The translations under genes and the position numbers were made by a program. Shown piece after piece: positions 41,164-61,015 of a stretch of DNA of 64,000 nt; the first letter of the stretch is position 1; every line of letters begins with the position of its first letter. The DNA comes from an uncultured Planctomycetaceae bacterium. Lineage in GTDB: Bacteria > Planctomycetota > Planctomycetia > Isosphaerales > Isosphaeraceae. The notes beneath the pieces are model-generated. The model was given only the letters and a program-made list of their open reading frames with translations. It was not told the origin of the DNA and ran no database searches. Where the stretch lies: assembly GCA_963833985.1 (NCBI GenBank), contig CAWIAD010000001.1, positions 1,472,001-1,536,000 on the forward strand, written 5' to 3'.

Positions 41164-42774
41164 TTAGCCGTGGGCGCGCATGATCGCGGAAGTGCTCAGT
41201 ACCCCGCCGTTGGCGTCAAGGGCCTGAACCTCGTAAAAGGGACCCGCGGCCGTGGTTGTGATCGCCGTCTCGAAGCCCGTGCGCGCTGCGGTCGCAACCG
41301 GCGAGAGCGACGCGCGCAATGCGCCGGCGAGCAATTCCCACGCGGTCGTCTCGGTCGAGCCATTCCATGTGGCGTACGCGGTGGCTTGCCCGTTCATGGA
41401 TGTGACCCACGCCGTCGGTCTCGTGAGCGGCAGGCCCACCCACGGCAGGCTCAAGGCGCGATAAGAAATGTCCTGGCCGGCCAGCACGTAATCGGCCAGG
41501 ACCGTCCCAGTGCTGGAATACTCGGTGTAATAGGAGCTCAACTGTCCGCCGGGTTGAGTGTCCGATCCCCAGCCGATGAACACGTTGCCGTTTGGAAGTA
41601 TCTCGAGGTTGCCCTGGCTGTTCGAATACAGCGCCGGGTCGTGGTAGAAAGGCGGAGTTGCAGGACTTGCCGTGTGGTTCTGGACGTTGAGGTTCAAGAT
41701 CAGGCCGCGCGCGGGGCCGTATGGCCCGGCGTAAGGCGGCGCGCCCAGGCCGCCGTTGTCGAACAGGCTGATCCCTCCAGCCGTGAAGCGCGCATCGTGC
41801 TGATACTGGAAGGCCGAGTTGTATGGGCCAGTGATCAGGTTGGACGGCAGGCTGAACTGGTTCTCCTTGCCGCCGATCTGCCAGAGAAGCTGCCCTGTCG
41901 TGGCACCGACGTCATAGATTCCCCAGGTGTTGCGCGGAAACCAGGACTTGCGAGCCGTCGGGACTCACATCAATCGAATTGGCATGGTACGCGTCCCAGG
42001 GCTGTCCCGGAGTCGTGGGAACAGGGACCATCGAATCGCTCAATGGGACATGCGCGGCCATGTCCCAGGAGAAAACCGGCTTCCCTGTTCGCAGGTTGAT
42101 TCCCTGGATGACCGGGTCTTCAATCGCCCCGTTTTTCGGACCGCCGTAGGGCGTCAGGTCCGCCTTCACGGGTCTCGTCGTGATGAAGAACGCGTCACCT
42201 TGTGGCGTGATCGTGAGCTCGTGCAAGTCCAGCCCGACGCCGTTCGGCGCTTTCACCGACATGATCTTCCGGTAGTTCTGGTTGTAGATGACGAAGTTGC
42301 CCCCCAGCGACGTGCCCGCGGGCATTTTGCTCGATGTGATCCCCGCGATCCTTCCCTGCCACCATATCAACACCGGTTTGCCGAACAGAGTCTGGGCCTG
42401 GAAGTCGATCACCTGCACCCTGTTGTTGCTGGAAAAAGGCTGAAACCAGATCGGATTCCCGGCGCTATCCATGATGAGCGGACCGGTCTGGCCAACCAAT
42501 CGAGTTGGGTCGGTGGATTGGTCGTACGGCGCGACGAAGATCGGGTTGTGGGAGGCACCGGCACGGAGTGCCAGCACGTTCACCTTCATCGGTCGAAGCT
42601 GCGGCGTGCTCACGAAGCTCCAGACGCCGCTTGCGTTGCTGAGCAAGTTGCGGCTCTCGAGCCCCTCCAGCGCGGCGCCGCGCAACGCAGACCGCGAGCG
42701 CGTGAACCGCGATGCGAATTATCACCCAGGAACTGGAACGTCCGAGTCAACCAGCGGGCAGCGCACGATGTCAT
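41164..42774 (-). CDS. Arylsulfotransferase (ASST)-family protein with LESR export motif; frameshifts at ~42675 and ~41933
   Basis: LEGLESRNLLS, GPLIMD..G..IW, DLHE, DAYHANSID, S(A)RNT, QHDARF, LFDNG, SQGN..LPNGNVFIGWG, SYRA. Confidence 0.85.
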
Positions 42775-43006: not shown

Positions 43007-45250
43007 CCTACTTTCCGCACATCTCGCCTTGACTATCTCGTAATTTCCGTGTGCCCTCTTTCGGCCAGTCAGGCTCAAATCTCGTAGGCTTTGGGTATCC
43101 CCAGCAGGCGCAGGATTCTCTTCTGGAGCCGAGTTAACTCTGTGCTGAACACCTCAAGAGGGCGTTTCCCAGCCTTCAGGGAATGCTCTTGAACGTCCTC
43201 GTACAGGTCGATCACTTTTCGAGCCGTCGGGCGTCGGCAGGCCCGACCTTCGGAATACAGTGGCAGGCTCTCGATTCCCGCTCGTTCCATCGCGCGGCGG
43301 AGTTCTCGCTCCAACAGCGCCTCGACCAGCAACACGAAGAAGTACACGCAGAGCAAGGCCTGAATCCGACTCACCTCCTTCAGGTACATAGGCGCTACCA
43401 CGAAGTCAGTCTTCAGGTGCTCGAACCGTCGTTCGATGGCCGGTTGCTGTTTGTAGGCCAAGAGCAGATCCTGCTCCGTCATCTTCGATTCGTTGCTCAC
43501 CAGCGGGAAAATGCCATCACAGCGGGCCTCCTCATCCAGTCGCTCCAACTCAATCCGATGCTTCAACGAGTAACGGAGCTTCTCCTCTCGGACGTACCGC
43601 GTGTCCTGTCCAGGCCGGCCGCGTCGCTCCTGGCGGAACTTTTCGGTGACCTGCTCCTCGATCTCGACCGAGATCCACTCGGTGACCTCACAGTCTCGGA
43701 GCAGCTCCTCGACCGCCTCGGCGACCTTGGCTCGACTGCGGTACCGGGTTCGGGACGAGGCGAGCTTGGCACGCAGTTCGTCCAGTCGTTTCAACGCCTT
43801 CTCCAGCCGGGTCAGCCGTACCTCCGCATCCAACTCGGCCTTGCGTGTGCTGTGATACCAGATCAGCCGGTAACCCTCGGTGGTCTGGCTCGCAGGTTTG
43901 CAGATCGAGAAGCGGTCGGTCAACTGTCCCTTGTCGTCGTACTTGTCGTGGGTCCATCGCCACTGGATCTCTCCCCGGAGTACGGCGCCGCGGAAGGCAC
44001 CGTCCTCACTGCGAGTTCGCGGCAGCACGCTGAGGAACCGACCGCCGCGCTGATGCAGATAGGCCATGTTCTCGGTGGTGGCCAGCTTGCAGTCGGCGAT
44101 GTAGAGAAAGTCTCGGCGTCCGGTCAGTTGACAGAGCAACTCCCAGGTCTCCTGGTGAGAGCGGTCGTCGGTGGCGTTGCCGCTCTCGACGCGAAAGTGC
44201 ACCGGGACGGCACCGTCGCCGGTCACGGTGAGGATGTAGAGTAGCTGCTTGAGGTCGGGGCGGTGGTCTTTGTTATGACCCCAGGTCACCGCCAACCGCA
44301 ATTGTCCCCGCAGGGTTCGCTCCGCCTCCGCCGACTCGTAGTCACCGTGGAAAGTGATGGTGGTCGAGTCGTTGTGTAACTGGTCGAGGCTGACGTCGAA
44401 TTCGCGTACGGCATGGGCCGCGACCTTCAGGGCCAACCCCGAGAGATTGGCGTCGAAGAGACGGTCGAGGGCCCGGCCAACTCGATCGTCGTTCATTGCG
44501 GCGACTTGGACATCGGACAACCCGAACAGTTTCGGCTCATGGCGGGCCACCCACTCACCGACACCATAGAGTGGCTCACGCGAGATCAGCAGGTTGCGCA
44601 GCAGGACGAGCAAGGCCGTGGCCGTGGGGACCCGAGTGCGGCCGTCCTCATGGGGCAGGTGGTCGCAGAGAAACTCGCGAAGGCGGAGCCGACTCAGGAA
44701 GTGTTCCAGGATGGGCACGGCGGCAATCCGCCGCGTGTTGAGCGTGCGCGTGCGTCCCTTCGAGCGGGCCGTCTCGCCGGGTTGGCGCGGTCGTTGAGGT
44801 TCGTTCATGCGGATCATCTCCGGAGGGTTTGCAGCGAGTTGGCCGGTGTCCGCCGCCGGGCCTTCCAGGGCCGTGAGGGGAGCAGGCCGACCGCCGCAGG
44901 GCTTGCCGCAATGATGGCGGAGGAGATCGGGACGTCAAGGACAAAAAATCTTGTGATTCACTTATGACAATTTGCCTTGACGTAAGTTGTGAGCCGCTCA
45001 ACTTACGCTCATAGCCCGTGTCACAAGTCGTCGCGGCGAGAATCGCGGCGCGCGGCTGGACATTGCCAAGTCATAAGACAAGGCGAAGAATGGCTCGAGT
45101 TCAGGAACGGTCCGGTTGGCGAACCATCTGAACCGAACAAGGTCCCCGTGCCGATCGACTTGTAGATGTTTACCGACCCTGGGGCCGCGTCTGAGAAGAT
45201 GGCCTCAGGTCGAATTCGGGGAAATCAAAGGGAGATGTGCGGAAAGTAGG
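43007..45250 (-). mobile_element. Complete IS1634-family insertion sequence (2244 bp)
   Basis: Perfect 19-bp TIR CCTACTTTCCGCACATCTC (43007-43025; complement 45232-45250); 6-bp TSD TGGAAA at 43001-43006 and 45251-45256. Confidence 0.93.
43075..44817 (-). CDS. IS1634-family DDE transposase
   Basis: NDDRVGRALD, HNDSTTITFHG, GHNKDHRPDLKQ, GNATD, IADCKL, YKQQPAIERRFEHLK. Confidence 0.92.
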   Translation of the reverse strand: MIRMNEPQRPRQPGETARSKGRTRTLNTRRIAAVPILEHFLSRLRLREFLCDHLPHEDGRTRVPTATALLVLLRNLLISREPLYGVGEWVARHEPKLFGLSDVQVAAMNDDRVGRALDRLFDANLSGLALKVAAHAVREFDVSLDQLHNDSTTITFHGDYESAEAERTLRGQLRLAVTWGHNKDHRPDLKQLLYILTVTGDGAVPVHFRVESGNATDDRSHQETWELLCQLTGRRDFLYIADCKLATTENMAYLHQRGGRFLSVLPRTRSEDGAFRGAVLRGEIQWRWTHDKYDDKGQLTDRFSICKPASQTTEGYRLIWYHSTRKAELDAEVRLTRLEKALKRLDELRAKLASSRTRYRSRAKVAEAVEELLRDCEVTEWISVEIEEQVTEKFRQERRGRPGQDTRYVREEKLRYSLKHRIELERLDEEARCDGIFPLVSNESKMTEQDLLLAYKQQPAIERRFEHLKTDFVVAPMYLKEVSRIQALLCVYFFVLLVEALLERELRRAMERAGIESLPLYSEGRACRRPTARKVIDLYEDVQEHSLKAGKRPLEVFSTELTRLQKRILRLLGIPKAYEI

Positions 45251-45329: not shown

Positions 45330-45650
45330 AGTTGGGGAGATGTCAGCGCGGGGGTCTGTATATTTTCACCGCTGCGTCTCCTGATTCAGGAACCACGCGG
45401 CAAGCATGGCCAGTGTTTGATGATGATGCCAGGCTGTCCAGTTCCTCACCTGGCAGTCCGCCAAGCCCGCTTCGCCCTTGGCACGCTGGAGACGCTCCTC
45501 GATCCGATGCTCGGCCTTGGCCACGCGGGCATACTCCTCCAGAGGCACATCTGAATCAACACTTGAAAGATAGTAGTTAGGTTTGAACTTTCTGTCCACC
45601 TGACGCTCAGGCGTGATGAACAGAACTTGCTCCACTCCCGCCGAGGTTGC
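45330..45650 (-). pseudogene. IS701-family transposase C-terminal remnant
   Basis: YYLSS...EHRIEERLQRAKGEAGLADCQVRNWTAWHHHQTLAMLAAWFL; 5' part absent. Confidence 0.8.
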
Positions 45651-45747
45651 TGATGGTCTCGCCCCCCCTTTCCGGTCCCAGCTCAGTATGAGACAATAGC
45701 TCACTTGGCAGTGTTGAAAGAGATCGGTCGATGTCTTGGACCGGGCA

Positions 45748-48700
45748 ATGGATGAGACGAAGAGCCTGTCTGAAGCTCAAGGCTCGCAACCGCTCGGTGA
45801 AGGTTTGACTGGCTCCTCGGATGAGACGAAGAGCCTGTCTGACACGAACGGCTTGCAACCGCCCGTCGTGGGTTCGGGTGCGTTGGCGTCAGGCGACCCC
45901 ACGAGGATCGGGCGCTACCGGATCATCCGCCGTCTCGGTCAGGGCGGGTTCGGGCGAGTCTACCTGGCGCACGATGATGACCTCGACCGACCGGTCGCCA
46001 TCAAGGTGCCGAACCCCGAGCGGATCAGTCAGCCCGAGGATGTGGAAGCCTACCTGAACGAAGCCCGCATCCTCGCCCGGCTGGACCACCCGAACATCGT
46101 TCCGGTCTTCGACGTCGGTCGCACGGAGGTTGGTCTCTGCTTCGTGGTCTCCAAGCTGGTGGAGGGCAGCGACCTGGCGGTCAGGATCGGTCAAGGTCGT
46201 ACGTCCTTCTGGGATGCGGCGGAACTGGTCGCCACGATCGCCGACGCATTGCATTATGCCCATACCCGAGGGCTAGTGCATCGGGACATCAAGCCCGCCA
46301 ACATCCTCATCGATGCCTCGGGTAAACCGTGTCTCGCCGATTTCGGGTTGGCTCTCCAGGACGAGGATTTCGGCAAGGGCGGGGGACTGGCTGGAACTCC
46401 GTCTTACATGAGCCCGGAACAAGCCAGGGGCGAAGGGCATCGGGTTGATGGTCGCTCGGACATCTTCAGCCTGGGCGTGGTCTTCTACGAGTTACTGACC
46501 GGTCGCAGGCCGTTCCGGGGGAACTCGCTCCAAGAGCTCATCGAGCAAGTGAGCGACGCTGAGGCTCGCCCACCCCGGCGAATCGACGACACGATCCCCA
46601 AGGAGCAGGAGCCGCATTTGCCTCAAAGCGATGTCGAAGCGGGCGTCGGGAAGGTACGCCACGGCACGGGACATGGCGGAAGATCTGCGTTTCTTCATCC
46701 AGGCCGCCCGCGGCACTGGCTCAACTCCTCTCAGAAGAGTCCCAGGGAGTCCGCCCGAATCGACTCTGGAAGCGGCCCCACCTCCGTCCAGTTCCCAGCG
46801 ATCGGAGTCCGATCAACGACCGATCAAGATTGTGCCCAGGGGATTGCGGTCATTCGACGAGCACGACGTCGACTTCTTTCTGGAACTGCTCCCCGGGCCC
46901 CGCGACCGCGACGGATTGCCCGAGAGCATTCAGTTCTGGAAGCGCAGGATTGAGCAACGCGATCCCGAAATGACGTTCAGGGTCGGGTTGATTTACGGGC
47001 CGTCAGGCTGCGGCAAGTCGTCGATGGTCAAGGCCGGACTCTTGCCCCGGCTGGCCAAGCACGTCCTGCCCGTTTACAGCGAAGCAACCTCGGACCAAAC
47101 CGAGAGCAGAGTCCTGAACGGGCTACGCAAGCTCTGCCCCGGCCTGCCGCCCGAAGCGGGTCTGGTTGATTCGCTGGCAGCCATTCGTCACGGCCGGGTG
47201 CTGCTTCCTGCGCAAAAAGTCCTCCTGGTGCTGGATCAGTTCGAGCAATGGCTTCACGTGCAGCGCGGTCGGGCGAACACCGAACTCGTCGCCGCGCTAC
47301 GGCAATGCGACGGCGAGCGCCTCCAGGCGATCGTGCTCGTGCGAGACGATTTCTGGATGGCGGCAACGTCGTTCTTCGACGACCTGGAGGCCGAGTTGAT
47401 CCTCCGCCAGAATGCCGTTGCCGTCGACCTCTTTGATCCGCGTCATGCCCGCAAGGTCTTGAGGGCGCTCGGGACCGCGTACGGAATCTTGCCAGTGCGG
47501 CCGGCCGACTTTTCAAGAGAGCAGCATAGCTTTCTGGATGAAGCCATCGCTGATCTTGCCCAGGACGGCAAGATCATCTCCGTACGGTTGACCCTCTTCG
47601 CGGAAATGATGAAAGGGAAGCCGTGGACTCCAGCCACACTGCGCGAGGTCGGCGGCACTCAGGGAATCGGTCTGACGTTCCTCGAAGATACCTTCGGCGC
47701 GTCCACAGGCGCTCCCAGGCATCGCCTTCACCAGAAGGCTGCCCGGGCCACGCTCAAAGCTCTCCTGCCCGAAAACGGCACCGACATCAAGGGACAGATG
47801 AGATCGCGCCAGGAGTTGCTCGAAGCCTCGCGTTATGTCAAACGACCCAGAGACTTCGACGACCTGGTCCGGATCCTCGACGGCGAGCTTCGCCTGATCA
47901 CGCCCACTGACCCGGTGGGTTCCTCGAGTGAAGGTCAGCAGGCCACACCAGGGGAACAGTATTACCAACTCTCGCATGATTATGTGGTGCCCTCATTGCG
48001 TGACTGGCTCACCCGCAAGCAGCGAGAGACGCGGCGAGGACGAGCGGAATTGCGGCTGGCAGAACGGTTGGCGTCATGGAATGCCAAGCCCGAGAATCGC
48101 CTCCTGCCGATCACCGTGGAATGGGCGAACATCCGGCTGCTCACGCGGAAGAAGGATTGGACCGAACCAGAGCGCCGCATGATGAAGTGCGCGGGGCGGG
48201 TTCACGGACTGAGGGCGCTCGGAACACTGGTCTTGATTTCACTGATCTCATGGGCAGGGTGGGAGGGCTATGGCAGGCTACGGGCGTCGGCTCTCGTGGA
48301 GTCGCTTCAGAGGGTGGGTACACCCGATGTGCCCGCCATCGTCGAACAACTCCCGCGCTATCGCCGCTGGGCTGATCCTCAGTTGGTGCGTGTGGTGCGG
48401 AGTACCGATGATCAAAGTCGGGAGCATCTCCATGCCAGCCTGGCCCTGCTCCCCGTCGATGCCACACAGGTTGGCTACCTCTTCGACCGCCTCTCCAAAG
48501 CCACTCCCACCGAACTCCCTGTGCTGCGTAATGCCCTGGAAACCCACCGTTCCACCCTGACTCCGAAGCTCTGGACTGTGCTGGAGTCAGCGAAGACGGG
48601 CGATCCCAGTCTGCTTCCAGCCGCCAGTGCTCTGGCAAGTTACGACCCAGAGAACACAAAGTGGGAAGCCGTAGGCGGCAAGGTGGCTCAGGCGCTCGTG

Positions 48701-51700
48701 ACAATCAATTCCATCTATCTGGGTCCGTGGCTTGAAGCCTTGCGGCCAATGCGTGGCAGGCTGACAGCCCCGATGGTCTCGATCTTCCGGGACAAACGTC
48801 CCGAGAGCGAACACACCCAGGCGACCAACATCCTGACCGATTACGCCAGCGGCGATCCCGACCGCCTTGCCGAACTGCTCATGGTGTCCGACTCGAAGGC
48901 ATATCTGAGCCTGTTCCCGGTCGCCGAGAAGAAGGCAGAACAGGTCTTGCCCATGTTCCAGGCTGAGCTTGCCAGGAGAGCAACCTACTCCTGGAACGAT
49001 CCACCGCTCAATCCATCCTGGACAAAACCCGACGCGGCGCTGGTCAGCCGGATCGAGTCGTCACAGGGCATACTCTCCGAGCGGTTCGCCTTCTGCCAGA
49101 CGATCCCAATGGACGAGTTCCTCACGACCGCAGAGACACTCCGCATGTCAGGCTATCGTCCCATCCGGTTCCGTCCTTACTCCAAGGAGAAGACGGTCAG
49201 GGTAGCGGGGATCTGGACCCGAGATGGTCGCCCCTGGCGAATGTCTTCGGGGCTGACTGATGATGAGGTCCGAGAGCACGATGAACGAAACAAGAAAGAC
49301 AATTTCCTTCCTGTCGATGCCGCCGGTTACGAAACAATCGATAAGGCAGGCTTGCCTGCCGATCGCTACGCTGCCCTCTGGGTCGAGAATACTGGCGATG
49401 ACGACGCCCGGTTGTACGTCGGGGTCACGACCGATGACGAGACCGAGGTTCAGGATAAACTGAAGGAGGCGAAGCTGATCCCGCGGACACAGCACGCCGT
49501 GGTTGGGGCGGACGGTCGCACCAGATACTGTGGCGTCTCGGGACGCTTCCCAGCAACCGCCATCACGGGTCAGACTCATCGAGACCAGTTCGAGGGAAAC
49601 TTCGAGCAGAACCAGGCGCACCAGGGCGACCAGTTGCTCATCGACGCGGCGATCAGCGGGGCGAGCAGGGCACAGACGAGCCAGGATCGCGCGTTGGCTG
49701 CCCTTGCGCGTACGGACAGGGAGCTCAAGACCAAGCCCGACGATCTCGATGCCCGGTTGGCTCGCGCCCTCGCGAACCTGAGTCTCGGGGAGAATCAGAA
49801 AGCACTCGATGACCTTCAGTTCGTGATCGGGAAGTACCCGGAGTCCATCCCTGCAAAAAGGTACAAGGTCATCGCCCTCGCTCGACTCGGCAAGAAGCAA
49901 GATGCCCGGTCCGAGCTGGCGAAGTTCCAGAAAGAACAGGCAGCCGAGAGTTCCAAGCTCTACCTTGCCACCGTCTTGGCGGCCGAATTGGGCGAAGGGG
50001 CGGACAAGGCGGCTCGAGACCCTGGATGCCGCGCTCAAGAAACAGCCAAAGGATGCAGATCTGAGCTATGATGCTGCCCGTGCCCTTTCCCTGGCATCGA
50101 AAGCAATCTCTCGAACAGACAAGATCAAGGGTCGTCAACTTGCGGTTCGCTGCCTCCAATTGCTCAAGGAGGCCGTCAAGAACGGGGATGCCGATTTCGG
50201 CAAAATGGATGAGGACCGTGACCTCGATCCAATCCGGGAGGACCCCGCATTTGCCGACATCATGAAGGCAGGTCACCCCGACCGCCGCTACACCGCCGTA
50301 TGGAACAGCGATGCGCGCTTCGAGGCGATTCCGATCTACGGCGTCGATCCCGCTTCCCAGTTGCAGAAGTGCCGGGAGCTAATCGCCCAGGGTTATCGCC
50401 CGGTGTCGCTCACGCTGACTCGCGCCATCTCCGATGGACCGTTGGCGACTGCCTCGGTCTGGCACCGCCCTGCGGTCAGCGAGGAATTGAAGGATCGCCT
50501 TGCGGAGCGTCAGGCAAGGGCAGCGGTCGCCCTGGTCCGAATGGGCAAAGCTGAGGATGTCTGGACTCTGCTTCGGCATAGCGTCGACCCCCGAGTGCGG
50601 AGTTTCATCCTCAACTGGCTGGATCCCCTGGGTGCCGATCCGAAGTTGATCGCCGCCGAATTTGACCGTCTGGATTCTCCCGTAACCCACCACGCGCCAC
50701 CCGCCACCCAGAAGATGGAAGCCGTTTTGTTCCATCCTGAGACCTCAATTCGGCGGGCGTTGATCCAGGCATTGGGATCCTATGGCACGGAGGGGCTGTC
50801 TCCAGGTGAGCGGGAGCCGCTGACCCGTAAGCTACTCGACCTCTACTGCAACGACCCGGACGCAGGCATCCACGGTGCGGCGGAATGGACACTGCGCAAG
50901 TGGGGACAGCAAGGCAAGTTAAAGGAGGCTGATGCCCAGTTGGTGAAAAGAAAAGACTGGGGCCATCGGCGGTGGCTTGTCAATGCTCAAGGGCAGAGCT
51001 TCGCCGTGATCGAAGGACCGGTCGAGTTTCGCATGGGCTCGCCGCCGACGGAGCCGAATCGTCATGCGAACCTGGAAATTCCGCGTCGGCTGGTCATCCC
51101 CCGCCGCTTCGCCATCGCCGCCAAGGAGGTTACCAAGGAGCAGTGGCAGAGGTTTGAGCGGACCCACCCCCAGCACGGATTGCCTCCGAGCTCCGTGAAC
51201 CAGTTCAGTCCCGACCCGGACGGTCCCATGTCCGGTTTCACCTGGTATATTGCCGCGGAATACTGCAACTGGCTGAGCGAGCAGGAGGGATTACCCAAGC
51301 ACCAGTGGTGCTACATCCCTAATGAAGCAGGTGCGTACGCCGACGGGATGTCCATTCCCGCCGACGTGCTCCAGCGCACGGGCTACCGCCTGCCGACCGA
51401 GCCGGAATGGGAATACGCCTGCCGCTCGGGCACGGTGACCAGCTATTACTTCGGACTGTCGACCGAGCTTGTGGACAAGTACGTGTGGTCTCAATCCAAT
51501 AGCAACGATCATGCCCGGTCCTGCGGGAGCTTGTTTCCGAACGATCTGGGGCTCTTCGACATGCTGGGGAACGAATTTGAATGGGTGCAAGATAGCATGG
51601 ATAGACCAATGCCGAAAAGCGGCGGAGCATTCATAGATAGATTGTCCTTAGAATACTTATCTGACAATATCCATCGCGTGCTTCGGGGCGGGGCGTTCAA

Positions 51701-51800
51701 CATCCTACCGACGGGCGACCGCTCGGCGCTCCGTTGGGGGACCGCGCCGTCGTACCGCTACACTGACCTCGGTTTCCGCCCCGCCAGGACCTACCCCTGA
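45748..51800 (+). CDS. ~2000-aa Ser/Thr kinase - STAND (nSTAND1-like) NTPase - helical/tandem repeats - TPR - FGE-sulfatase/C-type-lectin-fold protein; frameshifts at ~46612 and ~50011
   Basis: Kinase LGQGGFGRVY, HRDIKPANIL, DFGLA, GTPSYMSPEQ; P.RGL..F, GPSGCGKSS, LLVLDQFEQW, VRDDF, LSHDY; GYRP..Y..IW repeats; FRMGSP, EVT, YRLPTEPEWEYACR, NDLGLFDMLGN..EW, RGGAF, GFRPART. Confidence 0.88.
45750..45842 (+). repeat. 69-bp-period duplication in the kinase N-terminus
   Basis: GGATGAGACGAAGAGCCTGTCTGA at 45750-45773 and 45819-45842 (DETKSLS x2). Confidence 0.9.
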
Positions 51801-52311
51801 GTTGCTTTACAACCTGAGCACCCTGCACCTTGTGAAAGCACATTTGTATGTAAAGATGAAATTTATATCAAACTGATTCATTGCGTTTGAGGGGAGACGC
51901 CCTCGACACCGATGCCATCCTTCCCGGTCAGCCAGGCGATACCGTCAACATCGCGACGACGAACCTGACGCACCTGAACCGGTTCCCGGGAATCGACGCC
52001 CGGACCTGGAATCAGCTCCGGTAGGCATCCGGCAGGGCAGGGAGGTCGGGCCAGTCCGAGAAGTCACCGTGTCCGGGCCGCCCATCGAAAGTTCGGACCG
52101 GTCGCCAGTCGCTTCTGCAATCGCAGTTGGAGCTGACGCCGTTGTGGCATGGCCAGTTGCAGGTGACCGTCCTGCCGCCCAGCTGGTATTCGAATGCTTG
52201 GGCGACAAGACGGCTACGGAACTTTTTCTGCGCTCACGTGCAAGAATTGACGGTTTCGCGCTTCGAGCGTTGATTGGCGGTCGGCAGTTTCACATGAGAG
52301 ACTCCGTTCGC

Positions 52312-56117: not shown

Positions 56118-56306
56118 TCCGCGTGGCCGCCTACCTGAAGCCCTGTCCTGCTTCGGTCGGATCGACCGATGGCCGTTGTCAGAGGATGATCTTGATCGTA
56201 CGTTGTGGCCAGCTCGGCGTTGCTGACCCTGCAACCCAAGGGGCGAATTCTTGGTTCTGTCGTGGAAGTGACTGTGCAACCGGTAGTTTTGCTAGAGGTC
56301 AAGAAC

Positions 56307-56347
56307 GGAGACGACCGGGATCGAACCGGCAACCTCCTGGTTGCAAA
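56307..56347 (-). repeat. att-like 41-bp direct repeat of the tRNA-Ala 3' half
   Basis: Identical to 57555-57595; identity ends exactly at the 7-nt anticodon loop. Confidence 0.93.
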
Positions 56348-56425
56348 TACGGCGGTCGCAACAGTTGGAAGTTGTGCAGCAGAGCCTTGCCGGCAAGGCT
56401 CCACTCCATGACGCGAACTGAAAAC

Positions 56426-56788
56426 TCATCGCCACTGGTTCAGCACGTGAATCCGGTCGCGAATCCCAACCCCAGAAACTTCCAGCTTGGTGATCGCGGT
56501 TCCAATCCCGCGATCCGTCAGGTTGTGACGCGGGTCGTTGTCAAACCGGACGATCAGAATACCGGCATGGTGGCCCGCGGCAGCGATGACCAGGTCATGC
56601 AGGTCTTCGAAGTCTTCCGAATCCTGTGTGAGAACCGGGAGGCCCTGGGCAATCGCGAAGATGAGCACCCTCGCATCCGTAAAGGACCGTAGACTGACAT
56701 CCCCAGCGAGAACCGGATCGTGTCCCTGAGCCTGCAGCCTTGCAGCGAGTACGGGGCTGCTCATGTTCTCGTCGATCAGGAACCTCAT
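56426..56788 (-). CDS. DUF5615 PIN-like (VapC45/Mut7-C type) toxin
   Basis: MRFLIDENMS, LQAQGHD, D..VL..A, VLTQDSEDF, HAGIL. Confidence 0.88.
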   Translation of the reverse strand: MRFLIDENMSSPVLAARLQAQGHDPVLAGDVSLRSFTDARVLIFAIAQGLPVLTQDSEDFEDLHDLVIAAAGHHAGILIVRFDNDPRHNLTDRGIGTAITKLEVSGVGIRDRIHVLNQWR

Positions 56789-57078
56789 TCCGGGGTACGC
56801 CCGAGGAGGCCTCGCGCACGCAGTCTGGCCGCCTCGTGGTCACGCTCTTGCTCAATGAGCGGGCGATTTGCGGCGACATAATCGAGGGCCTCGAGGACCG
56901 CCTCCAGCGGAACCTGGTACTCCCGGGCATATTCTTCCGCACTCCGCGGTTCGGGCCCGTTGATGACCCCGTCGACCACCGCGGCCCGAATTCGCCGACC
57001 CTTCAAGAACAATGTCCGGTAATTCGAGCCGGGACGCGGCTCCAGGTGTTGATATTGTTTTTCGGTCTTGGTCGTCAT
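56785..57078 (-). CDS. DUF433-like antitoxin
   Basis: GRRIRA.VV..SAEEYAREYQVPLEAVLEALDY; ATGA overlap with the toxin. Confidence 0.8.
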   Translation of the reverse strand: MTTKTEKQYQHLEPRPGSNYRTLFLKGRRIRAAVVDGVINGPEPRSAEEYAREYQVPLEAVLEALDYVAANRPLIEQERDHEAARLRARGLLGRTPE

Positions 57079-57553
57079 GGTGCCTCCTTCGGTCGTGGCG
57101 TCCATCATACTTCCATCGGGGACCAGGGCGAAGCTTCGTCGAATTCTAGGCGACGCCAAACCGGCGGCAAAGCTGGGTCTCAGATTATCGCGAACGACAG
57201 TCAGGGTCTCATCGTTACGCTCGCCCCTGATCGAATGCCACACGCGGCGCCGCGGTGCATCAAGGCGCTCCTGTCGTGGCGCGCACCGGAGCGTGAACCG
57301 GTGGATTTGGCCGTGCCCGGCCGATAGCCCGTTTGAACCTACCCCGCCCTGGCTAAGAACTTACCGGGTTCAATCTCTACCATCTGGCGACCTGGAGATA
57401 GGAGAGCGCCTGGTAAACAACCAGGCTCTCTCCCGAACGAAAGAGCCCCAGAATTCAAGAGAAACTCCAAGAATCTGCGATCTTGCTGGTCAAATCTGAC
57501 AAGACATTCGCGGAGGCGACGTGATGTAACCAGAGAGATTATCTAGAGTTAAA

Positions 57554-57626
57554 TGGAGACGACCGGGATCGAACCGGCAACCTCCTGGTTGCAAACCAGG
57601 CGCTCTCCCAATTGAGCTACGTCCCC
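57554..57626 (-). tRNA. tRNA-Ala (TGC), CCA not encoded
   Basis: GGGGACGTAGCTCAATTGGGAGAGCGCCTGGTTTGCAACCAGGAGGTTGCCGGTTCGATCCCGGTCGTCTCCA folds as a cloverleaf; G3:U70 pair; A73. Confidence 0.97.
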
Positions 57627-59482: not shown

Positions 59483-61015
59483 TCAGGCGGCCACGGACTG
59501 AGACGACATGATGCGCACCTTGAAGCCGAGCGACCGGGCCAGGGCAAGCATCTCGCCGAAGATATCTCCATAGGCCACGGCGATGTGGTTACTCATGTAA
59601 TGCGCCATGATGGTGTCCATCGAGCAGCCCAGGTCGGCGGCCATGAACGGCCACTGCCGGGTGGTGCCGCGCCACCACGTCTCGCGCACGTCCTCGGGCA
59701 AGCTGACCGATTCGCCGCGCCCGACTCCATGACGGGCGCGCCGGTGTGATCCAGCCACGCCCTTGCCCAGGTGATCGAGCCGGCAAGGCTGAAGCCGGTG
59801 AATGTGCCGCCGGGCACGGGGAAATAGCCGGCGGGCTGGCGGTAGCTGTGCACGCCCTGGAGGCTCTTGACGTCGTGGTTGAACGCATAGGCGCCGCAGC
59901 TTCCGGAATTGAGCAGCACCCAGAGAAAGCGGCCGTCGTGGCGGGCGCCCCAGCGGACGTCGTGGAACATCACCGCGCCGGGGAGTCCCTTGGCCTCCAG
60001 CAGGCGCTTCATCGAGCTCCATGGGGATGAGGTTGCCCTGGTCGGCCTCGGTGCTGGTCATGACCGCGTGCCCGTTGCCCTCGGGGCGTGCGTGGGAGTT
60101 CAGCAGGCCCTCGGCGAAGTCGCTCGGGGGCAGCAACTTCAGCAGTCCGAGCTGGTACTGCCAGCCCAGGCAATCCGCCTTGAATTCGTCGAGCAGGTCG
60201 AGCACGGCCAGGTAGCACCGCAGTTGCTCCCGTGTGGACTGGACGGTGAAGTCGCTGGCGTCAGCCTCGTTCCAGTGAAACACCACGCCCTTCTCCTGCA
60301 CGAACCGCAGCGCCTGGTCCACCCGCGCGTCGTTGACGGTCTTGACCCGGTCGATGAGCCAGGCCTGGTCCACCTTGTGCTCGGAGAACCCCAGCTTGTA
60401 GAGCACTCTCGGGCCGAAGTAGCCATTGATCATGCCCATCGAGGTGTCGCCGAGCATGAGGGCGAGGATCCGCTTCTGGCGGATCGACGCCAGCACCCTG
60501 GCAGCCGTCGCCGCGGCGTCCGGGGAAACGGCTCCGAACTCATGCAGCTCGCTGGTGGAGTAGCGGATCTGGCCCGTGGAGCACCACTCATCGAGACGCT
60601 CCATGAAGTTTGTATCGGCCGTCCAGTCGGGGGCGTCGGTCCAGACGCGCGAGGCCTGGCGGCCGACGCTCTCCAGCGATGCGCCGGTGTTCAGCAATGC
60701 CACCAGCCCCGGCCAGGTGCCCGAGAAGTTCGACGCCAGCAGCAGCGGATTGTCCTTGCCGACGACTCCATCCACGGTGTGCGGGGCGTAGGTCCAGTGC
60801 ACGAAGACGCCCACCATCGGGTCGTCAATGGGGCCAAGGCGGGCAATGGCCTGGTCGGGACGTGTCAGGTAGTCGTCGATCAGATACGGCGTCCGGCCCA
60901 GCTTCTTGAGCGCGGCGGTGAGCTGGCCGGTCGTCTCGCGTGACTGCGCCAGCGCCCACTCGTTGGGCTTGGAACGGTAATCCCCGGGCCAGAAGATCGC
61001 GACTTTCTTGGACAT
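59483..61015 (-). CDS. L-fucose/L-arabinose isomerase-family protein; two compensating frameshifts (~60015 and ~59725)
   Basis: NFSGTWPGLV, SMGMING, GWQYQLGL, EADQG, NHIAVAYGD; the plausible middle segment (FHDVRWG..NSG..RQP..YFP.PGGT..TWAR) is in the 59593-60012 frame. Confidence 0.78.
   Translation of the reverse strand: MSKKVAIFWPGDYRSKPNEWALAQSRETTGQLTAALKKLGRTPYLIDDYLTRPDQAIARLGPIDDPMVGVFVHWTYAPHTVDGVVGKDNPLLLASNFSGTWPGLVALLNTGASLESVGRQASRVWTDAPDWTADTNFMERLDEWCSTGQIRYSTSELHEFGAVSPDAAATAARVLASIRQKRILALMLGDTSMGMINGYFGPRVLYKLGFSEHKVDQAWLIDRVKTVNDARVDQALRFVQEKGVVFHWNEADASDFTVQSTREQLRCYLAVLDLLDEFKADCLGWQYQLGLLKLLPPSDFAEGLLNSHARPEGNGHAVMTSTEADQGNLIPMELDEAPAGGQGTPRRGDVPRRPLGRPPRRPLSLGAAQFRKLRRLCVQPRRQEPPGRAQLPPARRLFPRARRHIHRLQPCRLDHLGKGVAGSHRRARHGVGRGESVSLPEDVRETWWRGTTRQWPFMAADLGCSMDTIMAHYMSNHIAVAYGDIFGEMLALARSLGFKVRIMSSQSVAA

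Follow-up and report, generated by a model that had tools for sequence, protein, structure and literature searches.

Proteins that combine an effector domain, an nSTAND1 NTPase and a C-terminal FGS domain, in association with diversity-generating retroelements (DGRs), have already been described in the available parts of two studies (Kaur et al., 2021, PMC8195603; Doré et al., 2024, PMC10907252). As far as the accessible text of the latter goes, such STAND-lectin DGR sensors are predicted and not experimentally characterised (PMC10907252), while in the available tables of the former Pkinase+nSTAND1+TM and nSTAND1+TM+FGS occur separately (PMC8195603). Most cellular DGR targets are membrane-anchored according to the part of a further study available to us (Roux, 2021). 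Here we analyse a locus at positions 45748-51800 of a 64,000-nucleotide stretch of DNA (the window) from an uncultured Planctomycetaceae bacterium (assembly GCA_963833985.1, contig CAWIAD010000001.1). This locus is quite probably one gene of a family of DGR-targeted receptor kinases, whose sensing and relay steps we infer. We call the family Isosphaeraceae because two of its listed homologues bear the NCBI names Isosphaeraceae and Isosphaerales. The key feature, absent from the initial annotation, is a DGR variable repeat at the gene end. The parts of the gene are as follows.

45748..51800, + strand: whole receptor gene, about 2016 aa read through two +1 breaks
45916..46688, + strand: Hanks-type Ser/Thr kinase, with VAIK, HRDIKPAN and DFG intact
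46612..46613, + strand: break 1, one extra C (GAG C CGC), read from the sequence, in the last helices of the kinase
46832..48098, + strand: nSTAND1 NTPase module, with Walker A at ~46997-47020, Walker B at ~47216-47245, and helical and winged-helix-like parts
48212..48262, + strand: probable single transmembrane helix, from hydropathy only, with basic residues on its N-terminal side
48290..48970, + strand: HEAT/ARM-like helical solenoid, first part
49073..49660, + strand: barrel repeats 1-3 and first part of repeat 4 (PF17660), in strand-helix-strand-strand units
49679..50267, + strand: TPR block (~200 aa) between strands 2 and 3 of barrel repeat 4, containing break 2
50011..50012, + strand: break 2, one extra G (GCG G CTC), read from the sequence, inside the TPR block
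50283..50465, + strand: last strand of repeat 4 and repeat 5, predicted to close the five-repeat barrel
50481..50945, + strand: HEAT-like helical solenoid, second part
50967..51797, + strand: C-type-lectin-fold (FGE-type) domain, best solved relative TvpA
51594..51677, + strand: coding stretch of GC 0.43, AT-rich and fast-changing, that immediately precedes the variable repeat
51678..51785, + strand: DGR variable repeat (~110 nt), with no matching template in the assembly

The region is covered by three overlapping open reading frames (ORFs) on the + strand (45736/45748-46953, 46631-50071 and 49902-51800) that step by +1 each time, and the signal of GC at third codon positions (GC3) switches frame at the same two places. 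Read through with an X at both breaks, they give 2016 aa and no stop. A search with the middle ORF in 41 genomes returned four loci with open frames of 2007-2043 aa matching the whole ORF, one of which holds two stops inside the match, while the other three are single ORFs covering the three pieces in sequence. Identity of the pieces, in their order, to single-ORF homologues (2006-2031 aa) is 65-81%. A search with the insert region of the gene gave 520 proteins, 120 of them listed, and 73 of these have all the domains, in this order, within a single ORF. A reading as three separate genes, or as a case of programmed frameshifting, would find some support in the ATG codons present at 46631 (ORF2) and 49902 (ORF3), but each break interrupts a domain (the kinase and a TPR), the sequence shows no slippery run, and all 70 aligned intact homologues are continuous and length-invariant at both sites; we regard this alternative as exceedingly improbable. 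On these comparisons, 45748-51800 is a single gene. The initial annotation had joined the three ORFs into one protein of ~2000 aa through two single-base insertions, and the intact homologues agree with it, while its order of domains is kept in the Pfam matches as well as in the 73 single-ORF homologues.

Concerning the lectin-fold domain, the Pfam FGE-sulfatase profile matches at 113.5 bits (cut-off 23.3), but the best sequence match is TvpA (E 2.6e-18, versus 1e-4 for true FGE), which is also the second-best structural match (2Y3C, Z 16.7). TvpA is itself known as a DGR target, and its PDB entry (2Y3C) is named 'variable protein 1'. The active site of catalytic FGE is a CxxxxC motif near the C-terminus, and this cysteine pair occurs in the last 120 aa of none of 73 homologues. 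The ends of the long-form genes vary mainly at positions 1 and 2 of NNY codons, and the pattern inferred from this variation led to a non-coding template-like copy and then to a full DGR; the template matched 42 of 121 family genomes. Within the repeat of the family, columns with an A consensus are conserved at 0.52, against 0.87-0.88 for C and G, and between two close homologues, L021 and L022, 6 of 300 bases in the core (2%) are different but 22 of 108 in the repeat (20%). Compared with ten foreign templates, the repeat of the window gene has mismatches at 14-18 of 23-26 A sites and at 10-16 of 82-85 others. By contrast, six short paralogues differ from the templates at 31-42 non-A sites, so they do not fit a template. 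Some short forms also bear the repeat (L086, L091), and diversification is therefore not tied to the barrel. By this pattern of variation the gene end is a DGR variable repeat, which strengthens the earlier proposal of a lectin-fold sensor tip.

In relatives, the same architecture lies directly before the accessory gene Avd, a reverse transcriptase (RT) and a template repeat. Nine long-form loci were picked on protein similarity only, and three of them retain traces of Avd or of a template immediately downstream of the stop. Of 20 regions picked for likeness to the template, several have target, Avd, RT and template as consecutive elements, in most cases decayed. One cassette (L096) is intact, with a 2047-aa frame, an Avd above the NCBIfam cut-off, a 354-aa RT and a template, and its repeat differs from the template at 10 of 24 A sites and at 0 of 84 others. 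The corresponding values are 12/25 and 0/83 in L084, 14/24 and 1/84 in L088, and 19/25 and 1/83 in L095. Such pairs of repeat and template show adenine-specific rewriting of the predicted lectin tip in relatives. About 12 family genomes hold a close RT (at least 57% identity, among the matches listed).

The source genome (10.16 Mb in two contigs, 96% complete) yielded no DGR RT, Avd or template. RT_1 matches were considered as candidates for a DGR RT and rejected: those translated are of group II intron type by motif, one of them confirmed by NCBIfam. A GC-rich hairpin follows the stop in 13 of 24 repeat-bearing loci and in 0 of 26 others; in phage BPP-1 a downstream hairpin is needed for efficient homing, according to the available part of PMC3240598. 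The family hairpin is absent downstream of the variable repeat of the window gene, where a weaker, unrelated hairpin (loop of 6 nt) is found at a similar distance. Since RT, Avd, template and hairpin were not found, the tip looks frozen and the window copy looks orphaned from its DGR, although an unbinned DGR may exist.

A template-like repeat without adjacent RT or Avd (L052:1400-1580, G020:C30) has a small toxin-antitoxin-like pair on one side and a gene for a Clp-type ATPase on the other (both labelled by eye), and a broken repeat-bearing gene end with an Avd fragment (L024:16771-18176, G010:C9) lies 4 kb upstream of an intact homologue at a shared tRNA-Ala locus. About ten group II intron RT copies in genome G000 (e.g. 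C1:774795-777475) carry a ~2-kb insertion, always at one and the same codon, and each of the two contigs of this genome begins within such an interrupted copy.

The variable repeat is AT-rich on both sides (window 51594-51677 and 51801-51880), synonymous sites included, which is not the case in paralogues without the repeat. The 84 nt before the repeat have a median GC of 0.42 (GC3 0.36) in 24 repeat-bearing genes, against 0.65 (0.79) in 26 others, and the 74 nt after the stop have a GC of 0.41 against 0.64, whereas the core differs little; one intermediate locus was left out, and these genes are kin partly picked by template likeness, so that any test overstates the contrast. In the two closest pairs the stretch before the repeat changes at 5-7 times the rate of the core, which a third pair does not show. 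It was considered as a second variable repeat and rejected: its A columns are as conserved as the others (0.71 versus 0.68-0.73) and it has no template in the fetched loci. Sequence upstream of the repeat is dispensable in BPP-1, as described in the accessible part of PMC3240598, and our literature search found no report of AT-rich DGR flanks.

Moving to the N-terminal half, a Pfam profile search of the three ORFs with curated cut-offs placed the kinase, nSTAND1, BTRD1 repeats and FGE-sulfatase above threshold, as the initial annotation had anticipated. The kinase (Pkinase, E 7e-47) has the catalytic K, HRD..N, DFG and activation segment of Hanks-type enzymes, and its HRD and DFG motifs, like Walker A of the following module, are present in 69 of 69 full-length homologues. 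The nSTAND1 profile (PF20703) scores 71.1 bits against a cut-off of 27.1, strongly in its N-terminal half only. Further STAND motifs are similarly widespread among the 69 (Walker B pattern in 66, RDD in 69, QLxHDY in 65). Structure models were made for the homologue L021 and not for the window protein. Its NTPase region was modelled with pLDDT 84, and Foldseek matched the STAND model at E 1e-7 to 7e-6 to 2QEN and 2FNA (archaeal STAND-like ATPases), CED-4, NRC4, 6J5T (a plant resistosome) and 8BOB (a maltose-system entry). Cdc6/Orc chains score as well as STAND folds, the root-mean-square deviation (rmsd) of the matches is 9-18 Å, and fold alone cannot split STAND from Orc/Cdc6. Profile, motifs and fold together support the earlier assignment of the P-loop domain to the STAND class, on which the initial annotation had staked its reading. 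At the start of the gene, a 56-nt direct repeat (45750-45874) doubles a DETKSLS motif of the disordered N-terminus, and one short-form paralogue of 2305 aa (L027, G013:C241) has about 800 extra residues before the kinase.

Between the NTPase and the lectin domain lies a composite arm. Pfam places the BTRD1/polyglycine-hydrolase repeat at 43.7 bits (cut-off 23), and matches to TPR and HEAT below cut-off only. A model of the C-terminal 1146 aa of L021 (pLDDT 84, pTM 0.74, variable region of low confidence) runs in the order helices, five strand-helix-strand-strand units, helices and lectin domain; the five units are those of the polyglycine-hydrolase N-domain barrel (PF17660). Its best structural match is 7TPU (Z 25.1, rmsd 2.9, 247 residues aligned). 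As 247 aligned residues exceed the ~196 that precede the TPR block, the barrel would close around the TPR insert, the structural match giving range ends only. Natural variants lack single modules: the barrel is uninterrupted and without TPR in L150 and L151, the ~490-aa insert is missing altogether from short forms (~1540 aa), and L142, L143, L148 and L149 have a barrel repeat but no STAND match. These variants support the module boundaries. The predicted structure thus shows a nested build with the TPR in the barrel. The repeat seen earlier after the TPR block (GYRP) is real and corresponds to repeat 5 of the five-repeat barrel, and the suggestion that the TPRs were inserted into the repeat array is borne out by the L021 model, which places them inside repeat 4, and by the variants without TPR.

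Foldseek with the whole 1146-aa model returned weak solenoid matches only, the ESM Atlas search no usable match, and the 120 listed of 451 shorter barrel proteins are family fragments only, by Pfam content. A phage origin of the barrel/TPR insert was rejected, with no match among 50,697 phage records. In a lectin-core tree made by a quick method, where 10 of 48 branches are well supported, L151 lies among TPR-bearing genes. Four homologues (L087, L088, L094, L101) carry in-frame inserts of 50-95 aa rich in GRGSPDP or GSGDPRP after the helix of barrel repeat 2. These are apparently translated palindromic repeats; a regex search for such inserts had no matches.

Of 121 family genomes, 36 have matches to the insert, frequently several each, but among 400 genomes sampled across the phylum there are only weak partial matches, in 21. 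The paralogue count suggested by the initial annotation gave one long form and four further STAND-FGE-type genes in the source genome, with no variable-repeat signal in those four.

This anatomy allows a working scheme, in which the steps beyond the anatomy itself are drawn from NLR and DGR biology. With a single membrane helix, the kinase and nSTAND1 would be cytoplasmic, and the HEAT, barrel, TPR and lectin part would lie outside the cytoplasm. The variable tip may bind a ligand such as a surface molecule of an invader or neighbour, and the helical arm would pass the binding signal through the membrane helix. The STAND module would then exchange nucleotide and oligomerise, and the clustered kinases might trans-phosphorylate and trigger a defence or cell-fate response, with the barrel and TPR as optional spacer or co-binding modules. 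In the source genome, where the retroelement appears to be gone, the tip would be fixed. Antigen sensing and an output by phosphorylation are putative.

Several observations weigh against this scheme as a whole. The functional part is read from anatomy. The repeat history of the window gene is traced on foreign templates, its own not having been found. An indel shifted the ungapped comparison in 3 of 9 cis pairs (L083, L085, L086), and L087 and L094 are noisier pairs, the latter with 13 of 85 non-A mismatches. No conserved partner beyond Avd and RT was found in 32 loci, where the largest cluster consists of spurious low-complexity ORFs, and PADLOC gave only generic kinase matches, with none for the STAND-to-TPR piece. 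Finally, the membrane helix, predicted from hydropathy, is marginal in the window protein (Kyte-Doolittle 1.49). Twenty of 69 homologues likewise stay below a Kyte-Doolittle value of 1.6, which the other 49 reach, and TPR and HEAT modules are frequent in cytoplasmic sensors, both of which would suit a wholly cytoplasmic protein in which the hydrophobic helix packs as in classical NLRs. But hydrophobicity is maintained while the sequence of the helix varies freely, K and R are more numerous on its N-terminal side in 68 of 70 proteins (a positive-inside bias), the stretch belongs to one 50-residue helix in the L021 model, and 'nSTAND1+TM' occurs 461 times in the available supplement of Kaur et al. 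(PMC8195603). A membrane helix after nSTAND1 is therefore probable from the sequence, and a cytoplasmic protein rather improbable.

The same anatomy might instead serve a regulatory sensor, for surface, kin or nutrient recognition or for development, and not anti-invader defence. The available part of Vallota-Eastman et al. (2020, PMC7517822) proposes regulatory tuning for kinase-CLec (C-type lectin) targets; moreover, the four STAND-FGE-type genes without a variable repeat are what an ordinary signalling family would show, and no defence partner genes emerged from the 32 loci. Against this, a STAND switch with a hypermutated tip, decayed cassettes and multiple copies per genome fit arms-race genes, and the accessible parts of PMC8195603 and PMC10907252 read the combination as putatively directed against invaders. 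We hold a regulatory role to be unlikely. A different question is posed by the two frame breaks, which have a slightly better than even chance of being assembly indels and a little less than an even chance of marking very recent decay. In the second case the gene would be a genuine recent pseudogene, in which the DGR core was deleted, an insertion sequence (IS) landed upstream and two real frameshifts followed. RT, Avd, template and hairpin are all missing from the assembly, in line with such decay, and rpoB and tuf are unbroken in it. Among 83 conserved genes compared with a same-genus genome (113 kb), 11 show frame switches, 12 in all, and against this background two breaks in 6 kb have a P of about 0.14 and are moderately unlikely. 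The gene also has 16 changes at highly conserved columns against a homologue median of 10.5, but 15 of 70 intact homologues have as many. Moreover, in-frame stops are absent, both extra bases double a neighbouring base, and near-identical repeat copies in the assembly differ by 245 single-base indels in 568 kb, all of which speaks for assembly error. No public reads of the source strain were found: no run shared over 8% of words, and RNA data sets with the sequence were not listed; the four runs compared contain contigs of relatives, mostly less than 90% alike, and two of these contigs without a base at 46611 are uninformative on the source strain. Elsewhere in the window, an arylsulfotransferase gene is split in two frames (41164-42685) and the gene at 59483-61015 is apparently frameshifted too, which fits the indel background of the assembly.

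The gene is flanked by the following elements.

43007..45250, - strand: IS1634 element, with 21 other copies of >99% identity in the genome
~45336-45704: IS701 remnant, after IS1634 and upstream of the gene
57554..57626, - strand: tRNA-Ala(TGC), with its 3' part duplicated at 56304-56357

The tRNA-Ala lies 5.7 kb downstream of the gene, and the 54-nt duplicate of its 3' part 1.25 kb away (window 56304-57626); two small ORFs between them are toxin-antitoxin-like by eye, with no NCBIfam match. The earlier placement of the gene in a mobile zone holds in part: IS1634 upstream and the duplicated tRNA-Ala end downstream favour it, but in a genome of the same genus this tRNA-Ala locus also holds an intact homologue. 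A tRNA-targeted mobile cassette was rejected, with a tRNA in 1 of 57 loci.

The suggestion that the combination of domains may be undescribed stands only for its middle: effector, nSTAND1 and FGS with DGRs are known, while the nested middle modules look new. In the available supplement of PMC8195603, 'BTRD1' was not found in the files searched (12 of 13), nor 'kinase+nSTAND1+FGS' or 'nSTAND1+HEAT' in file 1, and BTRD1, PF17660 and Isosphaer- strings were not found in nine supplement files of PMC10907252. Neither the nested HEAT/barrel/TPR arm nor its spread within one planctomycete family was found in the literature searched, which lay apart from subscription papers, bioRxiv supplements and one file of Kaur et al. 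(2021). As a speculative proposal, to which we attach low confidence, soil Isosphaeraceae may have expanded transmembrane NLR-kinases in which a periplasmic lectin tip, rewritten by a retroelement and carried on a nested arm (TPR in barrel in HEAT solenoid), would act as an adaptive-style surface receptor linked through the membrane to a STAND switch; this would be the first signalling context of the barrel, and the AT-rich flanks would be an unreported cis-element of retrohoming, for example easing duplex opening or hairpin extrusion. Being orphaned, and either broken or wrongly assembled, the window copy points to the family without being its best specimen. The family itself offers a readily assayed kinase read-out, an intact cassette in L096 and natural variants without TPR, barrel or STAND, and the three together make transmembrane STAND signalling and DGR-driven change of specificity directly testable. 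It also places the barrel fold in a receptor arm, with the AT-rich flanks as a possible feature of DGR targets.

Among known systems, those of Kaur et al. (2021) in the accessible part of PMC8195603 share with the window gene an N-terminal effector (S/T/Y kinase being listed), nSTAND1 and a C-terminal FGS, and with its relatives a neighbouring RT, a four-helix accessory gene and several copies per genome; unlike them, the present family has its membrane helix and lectin domain separated by about 900 aa made up of HEAT, barrel and TPR. The clade 5D DGR 'antigen sensors' of multicellular bacteria, as presented in the available part of Doré et al. (2024, PMC10907252), share nSTAND1/NACHT and CLec targets, adenine-specific variation, incomplete loci and remote targets, but their described effectors are EAD, TIR or peptidase where a Ser/Thr kinase is found here. 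The cyanobacterial variable proteins in the accessible text of PMC7517822 share a Ser/Thr kinase and a hypervariable CLec, with remote targets and transposases nearby, but they are mostly predicted to be cytosolic and have no STAND or barrel. TvpA of Treponema denticola (PDB 2Y3C) shares the FGE-type CLec, but is a small protein of 294 aa without signalling domains. Finally, the polyglycine hydrolase N-domain (Fvan-cmp, PDB 7TPU) shares the barrel of five EHEE repeats, its function being given as uncharacterised in the available part of Dowling et al. (2023, PMC9912923); in that secreted fungal enzyme the barrel is joined to a beta-lactamase-like protease, whereas here a TPR block interrupts it and it forms part of a helical receptor arm.

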